Shown piece after piece: positions 1 to 27,450 of a stretch of 64,000 nucleotides of DNA. The notes beneath the pieces are model-generated. The model made no database searches. It was not told the origin of the DNA and worked only from the letters and a program-made list of their open reading frames with translations. The position numbers were made by a program, and so were the translations under genes. Origin of the DNA: Candidatus Woesebacteria bacterium GW2011_GWB1_33_22 (GTDB lineage Bacteria > Patescibacteriota > Microgenomatia > UBA8517); assembly GCA_000989765.1 (NCBI GenBank), contig LBOW01000002.1, positions 70,843 to 134,842 on the forward strand, read 5' to 3'. The number at the start of each line of letters is the position of its first letter. The stretch's first letter is position 1.

Positions 1-1398
1 AGAACAATTTTTGAGTTAACTGAAGCCAAAAGAAGAGCCCATATCTTAGAAGGATTAAAAATTGCACTTGACAACTTAGATGCTGTCATAAAAACAATTA
101 GAGAAAGCAAAACCCAAGAGGAAGCAAAAGAGAATTTGATGAAGCGTTTTAAGCTTTCTGAGATCCAGTCTACCGCAATCCTTGATATGCAACTTCGAAG
201 ACTTGCTGCACTGGAGCGAGAAAAAATAGAAAACGAATATGAAGATATTAAAAAGTTAATTGATAGTTTAATTGCAATACTAAAAGATCCACAAAGAATT
301 TTAGAAATTATTAATACTGAACTTTCAGAACTCAAGGCAAAATTTGGAGACTCAAGAAAAACAAAAATTTATAAAAGTAAAATTGGGGAATTTTCTGAAG
401 AAGATTTAGTTGCCAAAGAAGATGTTTTGGTAACTGTAACTCGGACAGGTTACATTAAAAGAGTTTCAAGAAATGCTTACAAGGCTCAAAGACGAGGTGG
501 AAAGGGAGTAATTGGAATGACCACCAAAGAAGAAGATGAAATTGATCACTTAGTTACAGCTAGCACACATGATCAGATATTATTCTTTACTAATAAAGGT
601 CGTGTTTTTGGTGCAAAAGCGTATGAGATTCCAGAAAGCTCACGGCAAGCAAAGGGGCAGGCACTTGTTAATTTTTTAAATCTTGAACAGGGAGAAGATA
701 TTAAATCTATTTTACCAATGGATAAAGAATCAAGTGCCAAGAATTTAATATTGGCAACTGCGTCGGGGATAATTAAAAAGACAGAACTTAAACAGTTTGA
801 AAACTTAAGAACAAATGGGCTTATTGCTATTAAACTACAAGGGACTGATTCTTTAATTTCTGCCCATTTAACTTTTGGGTCAGATAACATTATGCTTCTA
901 ACTCAAAAGGGGATGTCTATTAGATTTCCGGAAGGGAACGTTCGGCCAATGGGTAGGGCTACAACTGGCGTAACAGGTGTTAAGATGACAGCAGGGGATA
1001 GTGTAATTGGCATGGAAGTTTTTCCTGAAAAATTAGGAGTACCTGTTGATAAAAGAAAAAAGGTCTTTAGAGATATTTTAACTCTTTCAATTCATGGGTT
1101 AGGGAAAAGAACAAGATTTGATTTATTTCCAATTCAAAAAAGAGCAGGGAAAGGGGTTAAAGCTTGTATAGTTTCAGCTAAAACTGGAGACTTGGCTTGT
1201 GCATCTTTAGTTACAGAAAACTCTGATCAACTTGTAATTACTTCTAAAAAAGGGCAAGTGATTAAACTTCCAGTTAAAAATATTCCACAATTAGGCAGAG
1301 TAACACAAGGGGTTATTATCATGCGATTTGCAAATAAAGGAGATTCCATCGCCGCCGCCACAGTCCTTGAAAAAACAGGGGATGAGGAAGAAGAATAA
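1..1398 (+). CDS. gyrA: DNA gyrase subunit A, C-terminal part (5' end lies outside the window)
   Basis: The frame is open from nt 1. RAHILEGL and QRRGGKGV motifs and repeated beta-pinwheel blades are typical of the GyrA C-terminal domain. Confidence 0.9.
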   Translation, partial: RTIFELTEAKRRAHILEGLKIALDNLDAVIKTIRESKTQEEAKENLMKRFKLSEIQSTAILDMQLRRLAALEREKIENEYEDIKKLIDSLIAILKDPQRILEIINTELSELKAKFGDSRKTKIYKSKIGEFSEEDLVAKEDVLVTVTRTGYIKRVSRNAYKAQRRGGKGVIGMTTKEEDEIDHLVTASTHDQILFFTNKGRVFGAKAYEIPESSRQAKGQALVNFLNLEQGEDIKSILPMDKESSAKNLILATASGIIKKTELKQFENLRTNGLIAIKLQGTDSLISAHLTFGSDNIMLLTQKGMSIRFPEGNVRPMGRATTGVTGVKMTAGDSVIGMEVFPEKLGVPVDKRKKVFRDILTLSIHGLGKRTRFDLFPIQKRAGKGVKACIVSAKTGDLACASLVTENSDQLVITSKKGQVIKLPVKNIPQLGRVTQGVIIMRFANKGDSIAAATVLEKTGDEEEE

Positions 1399-1401
1399 AT
1401 A

Positions 1402-1623
1402 TCAGACCTTTAACTTCTCATTCGAATCTAAAATATATTTTCTAAGTTTATTTGCTTCATCTGGAGTAAGTCCTTCTTCTGGTCGAAAAATTCCTACCAT
1501 TTGAGCTTGGTTTACTTGCACCATATGTGTATTTAAACCAAAACTTTTAAATTTGGATCCTAGACTGTTTTCAAGTAGATCATCAATTTGTCTTTTCAAA
1601 CTCAATAAAACTCTTTCTGTCAT
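1402..1623 (-). CDS. hypothetical small protein (73 aa)
   Basis: ORF only; no recognisable motif. Confidence 0.35.
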   Translation of the reverse strand: MTERVLLSLKRQIDDLLENSLGSKFKSFGLNTHMVQVNQAQMVGIFRPEEGLTPDEANKLRKYILDSNEKLKV

Positions 1624-1683
1624 TTGGAGGTATTTTACTTCTTCTTACTTCTTTTTGTCAAATTTTTCTGGTATATTTAAATC

Positions 1684-2412
1684 ATGAAGAAAATAGGAGG
1701 TGTATTTTTATTTTTTATACTTCTTTTTGCCTACTCCAAATGGGGGCCATCACTTCCAATTTCAGTTTTAACTCAAACAAAAGGTGAACCCTTAATGGTA
1801 ACTGAAACTGGTAAAGTTGCTGTTACTCCCGACGTTGCAAAAATTACTGTAGGAGTTGAAGGTCAAGGTCAAAGCTTAAAATTGGTTCAAAGCGATATAA
1901 ATGTTAAATCCAAAAAAATTGTCGATGAATTAAAGAAACTTGGAATTGAGGAAAAAAACATTAAAACAGTAAGTTACAATGTTTATCCAGAATATGACTA
2001 TCAAAATAGTCCATATAGAATTAATGGCTACAGAATTTCTACTTCATACGAAATCAAAATAGAAGATTTTGAAAAGATAAATGACGCAGTCGTTGTAGCT
2101 ACAAACAATGGGGCAAACATGATTGGTAATATTTCTTTTGAAGTAAATGACAAAACTAAAGAGGAATTGACCAACAAGGCTAGAGAAGAAGCTGTAGAAA
2201 AAGCAAAAACAAAAGCCAAAGGTCTTGCCAATTCTGCAGGTATTACTTTAGGGAAAATTATTAATGTTTCCGAATCTGGAGGTTTTGAACCAAGACCTAT
2301 TTTAATGTATGACAAAGCCATTTCAGGTTCCGAACCCGTAACAACAGCTAATATTACTCCAGGAGAAACTGAAATAGAAGTAACAATTACTCTTTCCTAC
2401 GAAATTAGATAG
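1684..2412 (+). CDS. SIMPL/DUF541 family periplasmic protein
   Basis: N-terminal TM/signal, then the conserved SIMPL pattern (TPDVAKITVGVEGQG ... ISFEV) and an RBS-like ggagg upstream. Confidence 0.65.
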   Translation: MKKIGGVFLFFILLFAYSKWGPSLPISVLTQTKGEPLMVTETGKVAVTPDVAKITVGVEGQGQSLKLVQSDINVKSKKIVDELKKLGIEEKNIKTVSYNVYPEYDYQNSPYRINGYRISTSYEIKIEDFEKINDAVVVATNNGANMIGNISFEVNDKTKEELTNKAREEAVEKAKTKAKGLANSAGITLGKIINVSESGGFEPRPILMYDKAISGSEPVTTANITPGETEIEVTITLSYEIR

Positions 2413-23235: not shown

Positions 23236-24119
23236 AAGCTTACATTATGCTCCTTGGAGTTGCCCTAATTTGGGGAATTGCAGGTCCAGTTATTAAACTA
23301 ACTTTAGTTGGTATTCCCCCACTACTTTTCATTACATATAGATTTGGAATTGCAACATTGGTCGCATTGCCTTTTTTAATACCCAAACTCTATAACTTGA
23401 AAAAGAATTTTTGGTTACTTCTTCTGTATGGTTTTTTAAATTCAACTGCCACCTTAGGATTGTTGTTTTGGGGAACAGATAAAACAACTCTTCTTGATAT
23501 GAGTCTTCTTTCCCTTTTTGGTCCGCTTTTGATGGTTACATTGGGAGCCTTTTTTTTGAAAGAACATGTGACTATAAAGGAAAAAATAGGGATTGCTATC
23601 GCTTTTTTGGGATCCCTTATTATTGCCCTTGAGCCAATTTCACATAATGGCCAAGGAGAACAAAGATTAATTGGAAACCTTTTAATATTTGGTTCTTTAA
23701 TTTGTGGTGCAACTTCTGCACTTTTGGTTAAAAAACTAATGAGGGAAAATATTCCCCCATTTTTTTTAGTTAATTTTTCGTTTGTTGTCGGTTTTCTAAC
23801 CCTTTTGCCTTTTTTATTGCTTTTTGAACCATTTAGCATTTGGCATTTAGCATTTGGCATTGCGCCCAAATACCATTTGGGCGTTTTATATATGGCATTG
23901 ATATCTGGAACACTTGCCTATGCACTTGATAACTTGGCTCTAAAAACAATTGAGCTTTCTGAAGCTGCACTTTTTGCCTACATTCACCCAGCCATCTCTG
24001 CAATCGCAGCTTTAGTTATTTTAGGTGACAAGGTAACTATACAATTAGGACTAGGTGCAGCAGTTGCAATTTTTGGAGTAGCCATTGCCGAGATCAAGAA
24101 AAAAAGATACAATACCTGA
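23214..24119 (+). CDS. EamA/DMT-family transporter
   Basis: Ten TM helices in two EamA repeats. Confidence 0.7.
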
Positions 24120-24120
24120 T

Positions 24121-24438
24121 ATGAAAACTGCAATTCATCCTAAATGGTTTAAAGAAGCAAAAGTTACTTGTGCTTGTGGAAATACATTCACTGTAGGTGC
24201 TACAACTGAAGAAGTTCGTGTTGATGTTTGTAGTAAATGTCACCCTTTCTATACTGGACAAATGAAATTTCTGGATACTGCAGGTAGAGTTGAAAAGTTT
24301 AAAACAAGAGTAACAGGTAAGGCTACCAAAAACATCAGTAAGGCCGACAAAAGAAAAGCTAAAAGAGAAAAAAGAATTCAGGAAGAACTAAATAGACCAG
24401 ACACACTTGAGGCTCTTCGTAAAAATGTATCCAAATAA
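24121..24438 (+). CDS. rpmE: 50S ribosomal protein L31 with Lys-rich C-terminal tail
   Basis: MKTAIHPKW...CxCG...[13 protein letters not shown]. Confidence 0.85.
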
Positions 24439-25129
24439 TCAAATAGTATATTTAGAAATTCGCGGTGCTACTGGTGGAGACGAAGCCAAACTTTGGGGAC
24501 AGGACCTACTTCGTATGTATTCTAGATTTGCAACCAAGAAAACCTGGAAACAGTCCCAAATTGATGAACTAACCTTAAAAATAACAGGATTTGGAGTTTT
24601 TGATGACTTAAAAAATGAATCAGGAGTTCATAGAGTACAAAGAGTACCAACAACTGAGAAAAGAGGAAGAATCCACACCTCAACTGCAACAGTAGTAGTT
24701 CTGCCTGAAGTTAAAGAAACTGATGTTAATATTAACCCAAGTGACCTGGAATGGCAGTTTACAACAGCTGGAGGTCATGGAGGACAGAATGTTAACAAGG
24801 TGTCTACGGCTGTCAGACTACGGCACATACCAACTGGTATTGTGGTCCAATCAAGAGAGGAAAGATTTCAAGAGCAAAATAGACTCATAGCTCTTTCACT
24901 TTTAAGATCCAAGCTTTGGGAAAAACAAGAAGAAGAGAAATTAAAAACTATTGCAGGTTACAGAAGTGCAATTGGTAAAGGCATGAGATCTGAAAAGATA
25001 AGAACCTATAACTTTCCACAGGATAGAATTACAGATCATAGGTTAAAAAAATCCTGGGGCAACCTTGAATCAATTGTTGAAGGAAACTTAGAAAAAATAG
25101 TTGAACTTACAAAAAGTTTAATATCTTAA
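24407..25129 (+). CDS. prfA: peptide chain release factor, RF1-like, lacking the usual N-terminal domain (240 aa)
   Basis: GGQ motif ([11 protein letters not shown]) and an RF1-type PxT-like region ([13 protein letters not shown]). Confidence 0.75.
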
Positions 25130-25373
25130 GACTTTCAATTACTGATGAGTTCCCAGTATTTGTCAATTTGATTCTTCCATTGAATGAATTATAAAGAGGG
25201 GTTAAAAATTCATCAGCCCAGGAGGGGGTTAAGACTTCAACTCCTGTAAAATCAACCTCAATCTTTTCATTTTCATTCACTTCTCGTAATGTTGGATTAA
25301 AGGCAAGTGACGCCTCCTTACCAGCAGGCCTTGAAACCAGTGTTGTACCAAATTTATTAAGGTTAATTACCAT
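25107..25373 (-). CDS. DUF4325 (STAS-like) domain protein
   Basis: Pattern IEVDFTGVEVLTPSWADEF typical of DUF4325 partners of GHKL ATPases. Confidence 0.6.
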   Translation of the reverse strand: MVINLNKFGTTLVSRPAGKEASLAFNPTLREVNENEKIEVDFTGVEVLTPSWADEFLTPLYNSFNGRIKLTNTGNSSVIESLKILNFL

Positions 25374-25376
25374 ATT

Positions 25377-26099
25377 TTAATATTCTACAACAGCCAAACA
25401 ACCTCGTATAGGTTCACTTGTTTCCTCAACCTCGATATCAGTATTATTATTATCAAGATTTATAGCAGAGTCCCCTGTTTGAAAAAATAACTTTATAGGG
25501 TTTTGGGTTACGACATTGCGAACAAATTTTAAACCATTACCTCGACTTTCCGGAGCTCTACCTGAAACTGTTTCTGTAAAGGCGACAATTAAAGCTTCAT
25601 TATGACTAGATAAGCTAGGGATCGTCTTTTTCAAGGTCGCAAGGATACCGAGACCTCTATCAGCAAGTACTATCCTTTTTTCTGATAAAGAATATGCAAA
25701 ATATACCCCCAAGATATCAGGCCAATTACCTAAATTATGATCAAACGAATTATTTCCAATCTCTCCAATAATGGCCGATATCAAAGACGATAAGTTTGAG
25801 TTTAAATCCTTAATTAAATTTGCCTGAAAGTGTTCGAGCCTTGCCTGAAAAACATCGCGAGTTTTACAAAAATATTCTGATTCAGGTTCATATCCTAAAT
25901 TGCTTGTAGCCCATTTTCGAGCAACTGCCAATTGATCATTTATAAATAAATTAATATCAGATATTCGATAATATCGATTTCCATGAGGCTTAATACGCAC
26001 TGAGGAAAATTTTCCATTTTTATCCCATCTACGTAAGGTATCAATAGAAACACCCAGTAATTTTACTGCTTGCCCAATTGAAACTAAACTTTTATCCAT
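25377..26099 (-). CDS. MerR/excisionase-type HTH fused to a GHKL-type (RsbW/SpoIIAB-like) ATPase domain
   Basis: N-terminal HTH (IGQAVKLLGVSIDTLRRWDKNGK...RYY); C-terminal N-box (EIGNNSFDH), G1 (DRGLGI) and G2 (GNGLKFV). Confidence 0.6.
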   Translation of the reverse strand: MDKSLVSIGQAVKLLGVSIDTLRRWDKNGKFSSVRIKPHGNRYYRISDINLFINDQLAVARKWATSNLGYEPESEYFCKTRDVFQARLEHFQANLIKDLNSNLSSLISAIIGEIGNNSFDHNLGNWPDILGVYFAYSLSEKRIVLADRGLGILATLKKTIPSLSSHNEALIVAFTETVSGRAPESRGNGLKFVRNVVTQNPIKLFFQTGDSAINLDNNNTDIEVEETSEPIRGCLAVVEY

Positions 26100-26187
26100 C
26101 TGTCTATTATATACTATCTATGCAAATATTCCTAAATCTATGCATTTTCTGCAACCTTGAATCCACCAAAAATCTAAATTCTAACTC

Positions 26188-27450
26188 CTAGATACTAGTT
26201 ACTAGTTTTATAGCTTCCTCAAGTTGTTCGTCAACAGTGGTCTCTGAATTATCCTCAACTTTAATATCTGGAGTTATCCCTTTTTCATTTACCCACACGC
26301 CCTTCGGCGTGAGCCATTTTGCAGTTGTAATATGAAGTGAACTTCCTTTTTCAAGTTGTAGTGGTTCTTGAATTGTTCCTTTACCAAAAGTAGTCTCCCC
26401 TATTAATTTATAACCCTTAACTTCACTTAATGCACCAGCAAGTATTTCGGAGGCAGAAGCACTACCTGCATTAATTAAGATTACAACTTTTTTATTTGTA
26501 AAGTTTCCAATCCTATCTGTTTTAAAATCATTTTTGACCAAACCCCTGTCTTCAATAACAACAACTGAGCCTTTTGTTAAAAACTCTCCAGCAATATCAA
26601 CCGAGCCCTGTAAATATCCTCCAGGATTATTTCTAAGATCCAAAATTATCCCTTCACATTTAGCATTTAGCATTTGGCATTTAGCATTGATGGTAGCAAC
26701 TGCTTTGTTCCATTCAGTATCAGTATCTGCACCAAATTTCAAAAGTTTAATGTGCGCAATTGTGTCATTTTCTCCTGCCTGCGCAGGTGAGTCTATAAAT
26801 TTTACAATGACCGAAGGCACGTCAAGTTTGGCTCTTTCTACAGTAACAGTAATTGGTTCATTTGACCCATCTCTTAAAAGAAGTAATGTTACCTTAGTAT
26901 TTGCCTTCCCTCTAATAATTTTAACGGCATCGCTAAGTGTAATTCCTGAGGTTCCTGTATCAATCTTTTTAACTTCATCTTTAATGCCAACAATAAAATC
27001 CCCAGCTTTAATTCCAGCCTTTTCTGCTGGTGAACCAGGCAGTGGAGCAATAACTGCTAAATTCTTACCCTTAAACCCTATTTGAATTCCAACACCTTCA
27101 AATGAACCAGAGAGATCTTCTTCAATAACTTTATTTTCTTCAGGGGGAAGAAAAGCTGTGTATGGATCGCCCAAGGAAGCCACCATACCAGAAATTGCAC
27201 CATAGACCATTTTTGATATGTTTACTTTAGACTTGTCATAGTATGAAGAATCTAGTGTATCCCAAACTCTCCAAAAAAGAGAAAAATCTACATCACTTCT
27301 ATTTTTGGGAATTTCTCTTGAAATTTTAACTTTTGGAAAACTAGCGCTTTCTAATCTAAATCCATTAAAACCTAAAAAATAACCTGAAGAAAAAATTACT
27401 CCAATTAAAATAACAACAAGAATTGTTTTACGAACGGCAGGAAAATTCAT
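26188..27450 (-). CDS. ctpA: S41-family C-terminal processing peptidase with PDZ domain
   Basis: PDZ domain plus S41 motifs (LDLRNNPGG, TASASE). Confidence 0.85.
   Translation of the reverse strand: MNFPAVRKTILVVILIGVIFSSGYFLGFNGFRLESASFPKVKISREIPKNRSDVDFSLFWRVWDTLDSSYYDKSKVNISKMVYGAISGMVASLGDPYTAFLPPEENKVIEEDLSGSFEGVGIQIGFKGKNLAVIAPLPGSPAEKAGIKAGDFIVGIKDEVKKIDTGTSGITLSDAVKIIRGKANTKVTLLLLRDGSNEPITVTVERAKLDVPSVIVKFIDSPAQAGENDTIAHIKLLKFGADTDTEWNKAVATINAKCQMLNAKCEGIILDLRNNPGGYLQGSVDIAGEFLTKGSVVVIEDRGLVKNDFKTDRIGNFTNKKVVILINAGSASASEILAGALSEVKGYKLIGETTFGKGTIQEPLQLEKGSSLHITTAKWLTPKGVWVNEKGITPDIKVEDNSETTVDEQLEEAIKLVTSI
26774..26787. repeat. family B mini-element variant (CCTGCCTGCGCAGG) inside the S41 peptidase gene
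   Basis: Encodes SPAQAGE in-frame. Confidence 0.75.

Follow-up and report, generated by a model that had tools for sequence, protein, structure and literature searches.

We propose that two adjacent genes on the reverse strand of the 64-kb stretch of DNA analysed here (referred to as the window) form a self-contained, autoregulated two-gene switch, in which a BldC-like binder of direct repeats would be set by an exchange between a kinase-like domain and a STAS-like partner; we give this reading a probability of roughly 55%. The first gene encodes a MerR-type helix-turn-helix (HTH) fused to a predicted GHKL-type ATP-binding domain, and the second encodes a small DUF4325 protein. What is new here is a putative operator word repeated over the pair's own promoter, together with the covariation, seen across homologous loci, of residue 20 of the recognition helix with base 3 of this word.

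CPR bacteria (Patescibacteria) have tiny genomes with few recognisable transcription factors, and their regulation is almost unexplored. The regulator described here is conserved from Microgenomates through Parcubacteria to Saccharibacteria at 49-81% identity. With an operator word, a promoter architecture and a replicated covariation between amino acid and base now in hand, the system is directly testable, including in cultivable Saccharibacteria. If the exchange between kinase and STAS-like protein is true, the partner-switching logic of sigma-factor control would here be wired straight to DNA binding, and a function would be provided both for DUF4325 and for a divergent GHKL family that is missed by the Pfam models.

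Both open reading frames were confirmed with exactly the coordinates given in a preliminary description of this DNA, and the peptides quoted there were found as well: EIGNNSFDH, DRGLGI and GNGLKFV occupy residues 113-121, 147-152 and 187-193 of the gene 1 protein, and IEVDFTGVEVLTPSWADEF occupies residues 38-56 of the small protein. The two genes are in the same frame, separated by 3 nt (Table 1). On one side lies the gene of a short release factor (RF-1/PCRF) and on the other that of an S41 peptidase, and identification of these flanking genes bears out the location described before.

Table 1. Features of the two-gene locus, with positions in the window and residues numbered within each protein
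Feature	Position	Strand	Basis or remark
Gene 1, 240-aa fusion of MerR-type HTH and predicted GHKL (Bergerat-fold) domain	25377..26099	(-)	ORF, Pfam, model, alignment
HTH domain, residues 5-55	25935..26087	(-)	Pfam MerR 2e-10 over residues 7-44; model
Recognition helix S18-I-D20-T-L-R-R-W, codon of D20	26040-26042	(-)	Residue 20 covaries with operator base 3
N-box EIGNNSFDH (E113, N117, H121)	25737..25763	(-)	39-member alignment and 83 homologs; aligns with SEAVTNAIIH of SpoIIAB
G1 box DRGLGI (D147, G149, G151)	25644..25661	(-)	Invariant; comes after strand 142-147 of the model
G2 box GNGLKFV, after the low-confidence ATP-lid loop, residues 176-188	25521..25541	(-)	Invariant residues
Gene 2, 88-aa DUF4325 protein, STAS-like partner	25107..25373	(-)	Pfam PF14213 2.9e-10; model
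Invariant P50-S51 at the start of helix 50-67, codon of S51	25221-25223	(-)	Homolog alignment, model
Putative operator repeat 1, TGCATAGAT, promoter-distal, over the -35 region	26136..26144	(-)	Exact match to copy 2, in direct orientation at a distance of 20 nt
Putative operator repeat 2, TGCATAGAT, within the spacer of the promoter, with 4 nt between it and the -10	26116..26124	(-)	Exact direct repeat
-10-like hexamer TATAAT, 6 nt before ATG	26106..26111	(-)	Read from the sequence

Domains of the two proteins

The N-terminal MerR/excisionase-type HTH proposed earlier is borne out by Pfam, in which MerR, MerR_1 and HTH_17 match residues 6-55 of the gene 1 protein (PF00376, 40.8 bits against a cutoff of 28.2; PF13411, 31.7 bits against 21.6). 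Excisionase-like families are among the matches of this domain (HTH_17, 3.3e-6; TIGR01764, E 0.0027; N-terminus of IS607 transposase, 6e-5), and it also matches phrog_66, annotated as 'excisionase and transcriptional regulator', with 1.8e-7. The N-terminal part of the structural model holds only the helices 8-15, 19-28, 46-52 and 56-65. The coiled-coil dimerisation helix of MerR proteins is absent from the model, where the HTH is followed only by the 10-residue helix 56-65 and then by the GHKL-type domain. A MerR-like winged HTH without coiled coil is also found in BldC of Streptomyces, which binds a variable number of direct repeats head-to-tail (PMC5859096). Judged by its sequence, the gene 1 protein is not a member of the BldC family, since NCBIfam HTH_BldC (NF033787) scores 16.9 bits on it against a cutoff of 77, its length is 240 aa and it carries a second domain.

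This second domain had been described as a GHKL ATPase domain on the basis of its N-box, G1 and G2 motifs, and the motifs stand. In an alignment of 39 members reaching down to 29% identity and in 83 genomic homologs, E113 and N117, D147, G149 and G151, and G187, G189 and L190 are invariant, and so are E184 and R186 in the G2 region. The AlphaFold model of the protein (pLDDT 87.4) displays the alpha/beta sandwich of the Bergerat fold in the C-terminal domain, with pLDDT below 50 at residues 184-187 of the ATP lid. Using the whole two-domain model as query, Foldseek matched the ATPase domains of Hsp90, TRAP1, ParE and GyrB (E 2e-4 to 2e-3, probability up to 1.00), with Hsp90 and GyrB, not anti-sigma kinases, at the top ranks. 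None of the Pfam HATPase models matched the gene 1 protein at E<=1, and the GHKL assignment therefore rests on fold and motifs. Among the relatives, HATPase_c_2, the RsbW/SpoIIAB type, is the most frequent Pfam HATPase match, always below cutoff (14/39, best 7.4e-4), and HATPase_c is matched below threshold in 8/39 (best 1.6e-3). In hhalign comparisons, which serve for motif register only, SpoIIAB aligned with all three motifs in register (E 0.011) and RsbW aligned weakly (E 0.025). No GHKL match to the C-terminal domain was found among PDB chains by single sequence, nor any PDB sequence by the family profile; the phage family phrog_3364 was matched with E 3.3e-14. Taken with the model, the invariant motifs make this a divergent GHKL-type domain with predicted ATP binding. 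Of the Pfam families expected from the preliminary description, MerR, HTH_17 and DUF4325 were thus recovered and the HATPase families were not.

The small downstream protein proved to be DUF4325 with a STAS-like fold, as had been claimed. PF14213 scores 40.1 bits on it against a cutoff of 23 (E 2.9e-10), and its model (pLDDT 92.3) superposes on the anti-sigma antagonist 3t6o (TM 0.74, rmsd 2.5), the stressosome structure 7b0u (TM 0.68) and RsbS 6jhk (TM 0.66), with weak Foldseek E-values of 0.13-1.5. The residues K7, R15, G18, P50, S51 and D54 are invariant in the family, also in the partners of relatives without the MerR head. Helix 50-67 has Ser51 in its first turn, near the position of SpoIIAA Ser58 when the register is set by eye; this manual register puts it one residue past the phospho-serine of SpoIIAA/RsbV and Pro50 at that place. 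An hhalign comparison of the DUF4325 family with SpoIIAA was uninformative.

The structural ranks also raise a second possible function for the same DNA-binding autoregulator. Here the GHKL domain would have no protein-kinase activity and would act as an ATP-driven dimerisation or clamp module following the logic of GyrB, MutL and Hsp90, with the STAS-like protein as its cofactor, which would bind a nucleotide or ligand, adjust the turnover of ATP and in this way control oligomerisation or the bridging of DNA. Binding of nucleotides or anions is within the repertoire of STAS domains, and the top Foldseek matches agree with such a module, also in the viral library, where RIIA, Hsp90-family and topoisomerase proteins rank first. 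Pro50 at the position aligned to the SpoIIAA phospho-serine and the absence of a phosphatase conserved with the pair (see below) point the same way. However, a transducer domain is needed for hydrolysis by GyrB, MutL and Hsp90, and the C-terminal domain here comprises ~165 residues without a transducer domain; its size and the order of its secondary-structure elements in the model fit minimal anti-sigma kinases. The predominance of HATPase_c_2 among the Pfam matches of relatives also argues for the kinase type, and kinase/antagonist pairs have as their hallmark a STAS-like partner that is obligatory and carries an invariant Ser. We regard the clamp module as doubtful, though a serious competitor.

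Repeats over the promoter and covariation with the recognition helix

The CTAG-rich motif reported upstream of the pair turned out to be the last codons and the stop of the S41 peptidase gene (..KLVTSI and stop, 26188-26209). It is absent upstream of relatives and was rejected as a regulatory element. The conserved element upstream of gene 1 is instead the direct repeat TGCATAGAT, which has two exact copies in the 64 kb, both over the promoter of gene 1. With up to one mismatch allowed in each copy, this operator is the single helically phased pair in the window, compared with an average of 0.07 pairs in shuffles, and no second target promoter marked by another exact or phased pair was found in the 64 kb. 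The TATAAT hexamer was not called by a simple promoter scan; the same arrangement recurs in the Woesebacteria relatives L001, L006 and L008, and with so short a distance to the ATG the transcript may be leaderless or nearly so.

In most of 82 loci the orthologous gene is preceded by repeats of the operator word, as TGCATAGAT or TGTATAGAT, over its own promoter. A total of 145 copies of the pattern TG[CT]ATAG[AG]T were counted in the 150 nt upstream of the gene in 82 distinct loci, a density of 11.9 per kb, whereas ~650 kb elsewhere contain 9 copies (0.0075 per kb-strand); the upstream enrichment is ~1600-fold. All 145 counted copies are on the strand of the gene, in direct orientation, and ten loci possess an additional single reverse-strand match near or over the start codon. 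The number of copies per locus ranges from 0 to 6, with none in 14 loci, one in 17 and two or more in 51, and the spacings fall at 10 nt (n=23), 19-22 nt (n=37) and 29-30 nt (n=8). In metagenomes, 63 of 121 matches to the tandem operator are located directly upstream of a gene 1 homologue, to which four operon variants can be added; the remaining matches are microsatellites, GC-rich non-CPR loci and a few rearranged variants.

The repeats are placed over the -35, the spacer, the -10 or the start region even across lineages in which no other neighbour is shared, which favours promoter control over a role in recombination. The latter would make the gene 1 protein an architectural or recombination-directionality protein, with Xis-like HTH filaments on direct repeats and an ATPase acting in site-specific recombination or nucleoid organisation. 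It draws on the excisionase-like matches of the HTH given above and on the binding of phased direct repeats that is also seen in Xis (PMC5859096), but an integrase, recombinase or att-like context does not recur near the pair and the repeats are fixed exactly over its own promoter or start region, so that we consider such a role highly improbable.

Residue 20 of the recognition helix covaries with base 3 of the operator in the combinations D-C, Q/M-T, N-GG and S-A. D20 is accompanied by TGCA in 44 of 45 loci and Q20 or M20 by TGTA in 27 of 30, with N20 paired to TGGG and S20 to TGAG. Loci with a replaced HTH (n=3) contain zero copies of TG[CT]ATAG[AG]T, and GTTAACAT-type repeats are present instead in the replaced-HTH loci L054 and L072. 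When changes were mapped on a tree constructed only from the C-terminal domain, 11 of 12 residue-20 changes share a branch with an operator change. According to residue 20, proteins with D should prefer TGCATAGAT, those with Q TGTATAGAT, those with N TGGGTAGAT and those with S TGAGTAGAT.

Conservation and genomic context of the pair

The DUF4325 gene is immediately 3' of the gene 1 homolog in 84 of 85 homologous loci, and the adjacency is therefore not due to chance; the intergenic gap lies between -7 and +16 nt with the exception of a single locus. The recurrence of DUF4325 beside such ATPases, mentioned in the preliminary description, is thereby confirmed. Relatives with no HTH or with a different N-terminal domain retain the DUF4325 neighbour in four of five cases, and the fifth contig ends too early. 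Neighbour clustering revealed no conserved third gene across 82 loci, the next neighbour family being present in only 7/82, and from gene order the two genes are one unit. In agreement with the earlier remark that no sigma factor is nearby, none was found beside the pair in the window. A PP2C-type phosphatase is not conserved beside the pair in the 82 loci, and a crude scan of ORFs of at least 150 aa in the 64 kb detected no PP2C motif.

Among species-representative genomes, the family was found in at least 581 stretches, of which most come from Patescibacteria; the pair is located among housekeeping genes, and these differ from lineage to lineage. AbiEii-like genes occur beside it now and then. 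Within Woesebacteria identity amounts to 72-81%, and between Micro-, Parcu- and Saccharibacteria to 49-58%. It declines smoothly with taxonomic distance, and close relatives still have the pair in synteny with ribosomal and translation genes; together these point to vertical inheritance as a core gene and not to a mobile cassette.

The association with mobile or defence islands mentioned earlier for such pairs was not supported for the subfamily studied here. Besides the housekeeping contexts, a relative is present on only 1 of 2.9 million viral contigs, tblastn gave no match in phage genomes, and PADLOC-DB v2 matched the HTH alone (residues 1-58, with mad1 of the MADS defence system) and neither the C-terminal domain nor the small protein. 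For distant relatives the association may hold, as the wider family of GHKL-like proteins with DUF4325 extends to phages, with phrog_3364 and a Francisella prophage in which the pair of a 293-aa protein and DUF4325 adjoins the CI repressor (PMC7924643). These phage relatives, the mad1 match and the AbiEii-like neighbours can be read in favour of a toxin-antitoxin-like or anti-phage module, in which the HTH protein would serve as operon repressor and the GHKL/DUF4325 pair would bring about defence or an arrest of growth, and a compact, translationally coupled operon of two genes, putatively autorepressed and with the HTH on one partner, would suit it. The silence of PADLOC beyond the HTH, the near absence from viral contigs and phage genomes, the single copy of gene 1 within the window and the pattern of vertical inheritance in identity and synteny stand against such a module, and we judge it unlikely.

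P0366 was considered as a natural STAS-GHKL fusion and was rejected; its N-terminus matches neither the DUF4325 family profile nor any Pfam family. No functional study of the pair was found in the literature on DUF4325, CPR transcription factors and operator words, consistent with the earlier statement that the pairing of ATPase and DUF4325 is uncharacterised.

Proposed mechanism and relation to known systems

The proposed switch can be divided into three steps. The first, reading of the operator by the HTH, is strongly supported by the comparative evidence: the HTH, which lacks the MerR coiled coil, would read the 9-bp TGCATAGAT with helix residue 20 facing base 3, and several protomers would bind head-to-tail on direct repeats one or more whole helical turns apart. 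As the pair's own promoter has repeats lying across its -35, spacer or transcription start, repression of the operon is the most likely outcome of occupancy. In the second step, which we infer from the fold, the motifs and the obligatory partner, the C-terminal domain would serve as a minimal GHKL ATP-binding module with the size and topology of RsbW/SpoIIAB, and the co-translated DUF4325 protein would dock on it via the face with the invariant loops R15-G18-E20, P50-S51-W52 and N75-S77.

By analogy with SpoIIAB/SpoIIAA, RsbW/RsbV and RsbT/RsbS, the GHKL domain in its ATP state would, as the third step, phosphorylate or at least engage Ser51 of the partner. Nucleotide state and partner occupancy would alter the oligomeric state of the regulator and thereby its co-operative DNA binding, so that the output of the switch would be direct promoter occupancy rather than sigma-factor sequestration. 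The sensed variable is likely ATP/ADP (energy charge), or another ligand or a phosphatase acting on the partner. More tentatively, the pair may be a class of 'one-component partner switch' that has not been recognised before, in which an anti-sigma-type Ser kinase fused to the BldC-like head would exchange with and phosphorylate its partner in an ATP/ADP-dependent manner, thereby setting promoter occupancy, and would act as a conserved regulator of energy or growth state in CPR with a readable recognition code.

The resemblance to partner-switching modules noted before holds for the GHKL-type domain and the conserved STAS-like partner; it is weaker at the level of sequence scores, with HATPase_c_2 only below threshold and SpoIIAB at the E-value given above. 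Shared with SpoIIAB/SpoIIAA, RsbW/RsbV and RsbT/RsbS are a minimal GHKL domain with ExxxNxxxH, DxGxG and ExxGxG in the SpoIIAB register and an adjacent, co-transcribed small protein of STAS-like fold, in which the helix judged by eye to be equivalent begins with an invariant Ser. The pair differs from these modules in having no sigma factor and no linked PP2C phosphatase, in the DNA-binding head borne by the kinase-like protein itself, and in a partner that is DUF4325 instead of STAS/STAS_2, with Pro-Ser where SpoIIAA has Ser-Ser; its HATPase matches are all sub-threshold and its kinase role is a predicted one. The small protein is a bona fide member of PF14213, whose proteins also occur beside ATP-binding proteins elsewhere, including phrog_3364; these relatives are without the MerR head, are found in other contexts (prophage, the conjugation-like locus L089) and have no described function.

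Similarity to BldC and lambda Xis lies in the MerR-type winged HTH without coiled coil and in putative operators composed of variable direct repeats at whole helical turns. However, BldC is a 68-aa single domain with a large developmental regulon, whereas the gene 1 protein is a GHKL fusion obligately paired with a STAS-like protein, and in the 64-kb window no target for it was seen other than its own promoter. With the canonical MerR, CueR and BmrR it shares the N-terminal HTH of the Pfam MerR family (PF00376). Their long antiparallel coiled coil and C-terminal effector pocket are both absent from the gene 1 protein, and their dyad in a 19-20 bp spacer contrasts with the direct repeats of the pair described here, in whose relatives the promoter spacers are 17-18 bp.

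Genomic setting and conservation of the gene pair

The two ORFs and the peptides quoted in the preliminary description were confirmed in the sequence. Gene 1 (MerR-type HTH and GHKL domain) and gene 2 (DUF4325) lie in a common frame with 3 nt between them, and gene 1 is single-copy in the window. The gene 2 protein is 100% identical to A2130_00890 of Candidatus Woesebacteria bacterium GWC2_33_12, and the gene 1 protein shares 99% identity with A2130_00895 (P0012) of the same genome. For the latter, the annotated start is internal (residue 53; 188 aa, MNDQLAV...), so that the HTH is lost, and the protein is thus filed as a bare hypothetical protein.

Features of the gene pair and its flanks (window positions)
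Feature	Position	Strand	Description
Gene 1	25377..26099	-	240 aa ORF
Gene 2	25107..25373	-	88 aa ORF
Operator copy 1	26144-26136	- (gene's strand)	exact TGCATAGAT
Operator copy 2	26124-26116	- (gene's strand)	exact TGCATAGAT
Release factor	24407..25129	+	240 aa
TGC[CT]AAA tandem	23829-23859		4-5 copies
TGC[CT]AAA tandem	26656-26686	-	4-5 copies

Domain matches agree with the proposed placement between a release factor and an S41 peptidase. A class-I release factor (RF-1 and the C-terminal half of PCRF) is located downstream and convergent to the pair, an S41/PDZ peptidase gene is the upstream neighbour, and the wider surroundings encode L31, EamA, HisRS, S18, SSB, S6 and YchF. The release factor is short, as are its relatives (233 aa); its RF-1 domain is full, and its N-terminal domain is missing since the Pfam PCRF match covers only profile positions 99-194 of 194. 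At their 3' ends, the release factor and DUF4325 genes share 23 nt. The heptanucleotide tandem TGC[CT]AAA (6 matches, 0 expected) is found inside two unrelated flanking genes, those of the EamA transporter and the S41 peptidase, and encodes one 10-residue peptide or its reverse-strand reading.

A survey with one genome per species yielded at least 581 stretches encoding a relative, of which the best 80 loci were kept. According to their record titles, these derive from Microgenomates (Woese-, Curtiss-, Collier-, Roizman-, Ames-, Gottesman- and Levybacteria), Parcubacteria (Portnoy-, Staskawicz-, Moran-, Nealson-, Brenner- and Uhrbacteria), Saccharibacteria and Peribacteria. The neighbourhoods of three long-contig homologs are unlike one another, yet DUF4325 is immediately downstream of all three. 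The conserved pairing recognized in the preliminary description was borne out by this survey: the DUF4325 gene comes next on the same strand in 84 of 85 loci, and the sole exception stops at a contig edge. Gaps of -7 to +16 nt in all loci but one indicate that the two genes are translationally coupled. No third conserved gene was found when neighbours within 4 kb were clustered for 82 loci, the next family being present in 7 of 82.

An exhaustive search with the C-terminal domain alone returned only 350 cluster representatives, in several architectures: MerR-HTH plus GHKL-like domain, a standalone GHKL-like protein of about 190-200 aa, winged-HTH plus GHKL-like domain, and cytidylyltransferase plus GHKL-like domain. 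Of five relatives examined that lack the MerR head, four have DUF4325 directly downstream; the contig of the fifth ends too early to tell. Because these MerR-less relatives keep the partner and its residues (K7, S14, R15, G18, D41, P50-S51 and D54-E55), the core module is the GHKL-like domain with DUF4325, and the MerR head is a CPR elaboration. A second, weak GHKL-like ORF (1226..2188, +; E 9e-14, aligned from profile position 104 onward) precedes the pair by about 1.6 kb in one Roizmanbacteria locus (L011) and lacks its own DUF4325 gene.

For the MerR-headed subfamily, the evidence speaks against the suggested association with mobile or defence islands. A relative occurs in only one of 2.9 million viral contigs, tblastn of phage genomes gave zero matches to the subfamily, PADLOC recorded no defence match for the pair beyond the HTH, gene 1 is not multicopy in the window, and identity among homologs declines smoothly with growing taxonomic distance. 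The wider GHKL-like plus DUF4325 module is also present in phages, since the GHKL-like domain is matched (E 3.3e-14) by phrog_3364, a phage family without assigned function (304 profile positions), and the Francisella phage KIRK prophage encodes a 293-aa hypothetical protein followed by DUF4325 (Fhv_0046/0047), adjoining a CI repressor and an integrase (PMC7924643).

A divergent GHKL domain and its STAS-like partner

The N-terminal MerR/excisionase-type HTH (residues 6-55) matches Pfam MerR (2e-10), MerR_1 and HTH_17, as anticipated. NCBIfam and PADLOC matches, to IS607 N-terminus, excisionase, BldC and mad1 models, are confined to it. With HMMER the proposed assignments stood for MerR/HTH_17 and DUF4325 and failed for the ATPase: no Pfam HATPase model matches the C-terminal domain at E=1 or better, and comparison with PDB chains, by single sequence or family profile, gave zero matches.

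The GHKL identity instead rests on four independent lines, and on their strength we classify the domain as a minimal, divergent GHKL type. First, the residues invariant in a 39-member alignment reaching down to 29% identity are exactly the Bergerat motifs, namely the N-box E113/N117 (plus H121 and N122), G1 D147/G149/G151, and E184/R186/G187/G189/L190, and this invariance is repeated among 83 genomic homologs. Second, the AlphaFold model (pLDDT 87.4, pTM 0.82) shows a C-domain that begins with a strand and two long helices, the N-box closing the second, continues with two strands ending in the G1 box and two short helices, and ends with a disordered lid, the G2 box plus a helix, and two long strands. 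Foldseek matched this model to the ATPase domains of Hsp90, TRAP1, ParE and GyrB (E 2e-4 to 2e-3, probability up to 1.00) and, in a viral library, to RIIA, Hsp90-family and topoisomerase proteins. Third, relatives scanned singly gave sub-threshold matches to HATPase_c_2 (14/39, best 7.4e-4) and HATPase_c (8/39). Fourth, hhalign against SpoIIAB placed the three motifs in register (E 0.011). By sequence, the nearest family appears to be the anti-sigma-kinase type.

Two cysteines, C78 and C234, located in the short first and the last strand of the domain, are kept in 97% and 100% of 83 HTH-GHKL homologs, respectively. They may be close in space, and a redox or metal role is possible.

The gene 2 protein is a DUF4325 member (40.1 bits, cutoff 23), and superposition of its model (pLDDT 92.3) on several STAS structures supports the STAS-like fold: anti-sigma antagonist 3t6o (TM 0.74, rmsd 2.5 A, 89 columns), stressosome 7b0u (TM 0.68), RsbS and SLC26 STAS domains. 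With a query of only 88 residues, the Foldseek E-values are, predictably, weak (0.13-1.5). The invariant R15-G18-E20, P50-S51-W52 and N75-S77 are in loops after strands, with Ser51 in the first turn of helix 50-67. Loops following strands form the kinase-meeting face of STAS proteins.

Operator repeats and a candidate mode of regulation

A conserved operator, missed in the preliminary description, lies upstream of gene 1; the CTAG motif proposed there as an upstream element is not supported. The two exact TGCATAGAT copies, 20 nt apart on the gene's strand, have no other exact match in the 64 kb and form the sole helically phased pair there with at most one mismatch each. Copy 2 is followed after 4 nt by TATAAT, and a further 6 nt separate this hexamer from the ATG, a layout that suggests a leaderless transcript.

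Comparison of upstream regions revealed the word repeated at nearly all loci, as TGCATAGAT in Microgenomates and TGTATAGAT in most Parcubacteria and Saccharibacteria. The 150-nt upstream regions of 82 distinct loci contain 145 copies of TG[CT]ATAG[AG]T in total (11.9 per kb), against 9 in roughly 650 kb elsewhere (0.0075 per kb-strand). All 145 are in direct orientation; a single reverse-strand match occurs near or over the start codon in ten loci with mutually closely related sequences. Spacings are 10 nt (n=23), 19-22 nt (n=37) and 29-30 nt (n=8), and loci carry 0 to 6 copies (none in 14, one in 17, two or more in 51). Two layouts are typical. In one, TTGCAT(AGAT) serves as the -35, a second copy occupies an 18-bp spacer before the -10, and a third precedes the ATG; in the other, a copy abuts TTGACA, followed by a 17-bp spacer, TATAAT and a copy over the start site. 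Since both place copies on the promoter, autorepression of the operon is suggested. This placement, together with the distribution, makes a toxin-antitoxin or defence role, or one in recombination directionality, much less likely.

Residue 20 of the recognition helix (S18-I-X20-T-L-R-R-W) tracks operator base 3. D accompanies TGCA in 44/45 loci and Q or M accompanies TGTA in 27/30; N is found with TGGG in L020, and in L057 with one TGGG, one TGAG and one TGTA; S is found with TGAG in L067. Where the HTH is replaced (SRVAVFKKI; L054, L072 and L080), the TG[CT]ATAG[AG]T word is absent from all three, and L054 and L072 carry GTTAACAT-type repeats in its place. Fisher's test of D versus Q/M gives p = 6e-19, not corrected for phylogeny. 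Relatedness was handled by Fitch parsimony on a neighbor-joining tree from the C-domain only, where 11 of 12 residue-20 changes share a branch with an operator change, among them three independent D-to-Q/M changes with C-to-T and one reversal. These sequence correlations are strong comparative evidence for direct, sequence-specific autoregulation, with the HTH as predicted reader of the operator.

In the model the HTH is followed by just a 10-residue helix. Unlike MerR, which binds dyads, gene 1 thus has no coiled coil and is associated with direct repeats. Phased direct repeats of variable number resemble those of BldC/Xis, which form head-to-tail co-operative multimers on direct repeats (PMC5859096), and HTH protomers would bind the operator likewise. 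In size and element order the GHKL domain corresponds to SpoIIAB/RsbW, and its obligatory partner is STAS-like, as are SpoIIAA/RsbV-type antagonists, with invariant loop residues. On these grounds we favour a partner switch with promoter occupancy as output, in which the regulator would change its oligomeric state on the repeats according to nucleotide state and to binding or phosphorylation of the partner. The main rival keeps the same regulator and takes the GHKL domain as a non-kinase ATP clamp; the kinase step is weakened because Ser51 falls one residue after the SpoIIAA phospho-serine (manual register), Hsp90 and GyrB outrank kinases in Foldseek, and no phosphatase is linked to the pair among neighbours of 82 loci or in a motif scan of the window.

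By analogy, the pair would act as a module of SpoIIAB/SpoIIAA type coupled to a DNA reader of BldC type. Certified membership is limited to Pfam MerR and DUF4325, gene 1 failing the sequence thresholds of HATPase families and BldC, and the pair differs from classical partner switching in having no sigma factor, the defining component, as already remarked in the preliminary description. Its core reading, an HTH-GHKL protein paired with DUF4325, is upheld. We found no literature report on the pair, DUF4325 function or the operator, in line with its statement that the function is uncharacterised.

Operator-like sites in metagenome contigs

A metagenome scan with the tandem 19-mer returned at least 121 sites. 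Among the 121 listed, 63 are directly upstream of a gene 1 homolog, 4 more are rearranged operon versions, contig ends truncate about 10, and most of the others are unrelated. The operator directly precedes a lone DUF4325 gene in L106 and L148. In contigs L193 and L145 it is joined to the last GHKL gene codons or to sequence from the middle of the DUF4325 gene, and a DUF4325 gene and a divergent Fic-like gene flank it in L100 and L127. These six may be natural deletions or assembly chimeras.

The tandem word TGCATAGATTTGCATAGAT is identical upstream of a radical-SAM (AhbD/NirJ-like) gene in five non-CPR contigs (L142, L155, L181, L201 and L208; GC 0.50-0.62) with otherwise unlike flanks. Four of them encode, about 3 kb off, a 225-237 aa protein with a MerR-type HTH like that of gene 1 (E about 1e-6), and the fifth (L201) is short. 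A related HTH may read TGCATAGATTTGCATAGAT in another lineage. The same word is upstream of argC in L113, L146 and L194.

Two very large CPR proteins (L136, 3..1547, -; L211, 1..2136, -) start 15-32 nt from an opposite-oriented tandem operator. They combine a MerR-like HTH at the N-terminus (E 3e-9 to 3e-10 against that of gene 1) with a transmembrane segment and long Thr/Ser/Gly-rich repeats. An AT-rich element of about 70 nt (GGTTCGTCC.TATGAAGAAAGTTATATCATTAAAGATTTATGCATAGATTTGCATAGATTTTTAGGATCTG), conserved in L096, L110, L144, L167, L186, L190 and L207 and followed by unrelated sequence in every contig, resembles the terminus of a mobile element or intron and is probably unrelated to the regulator.
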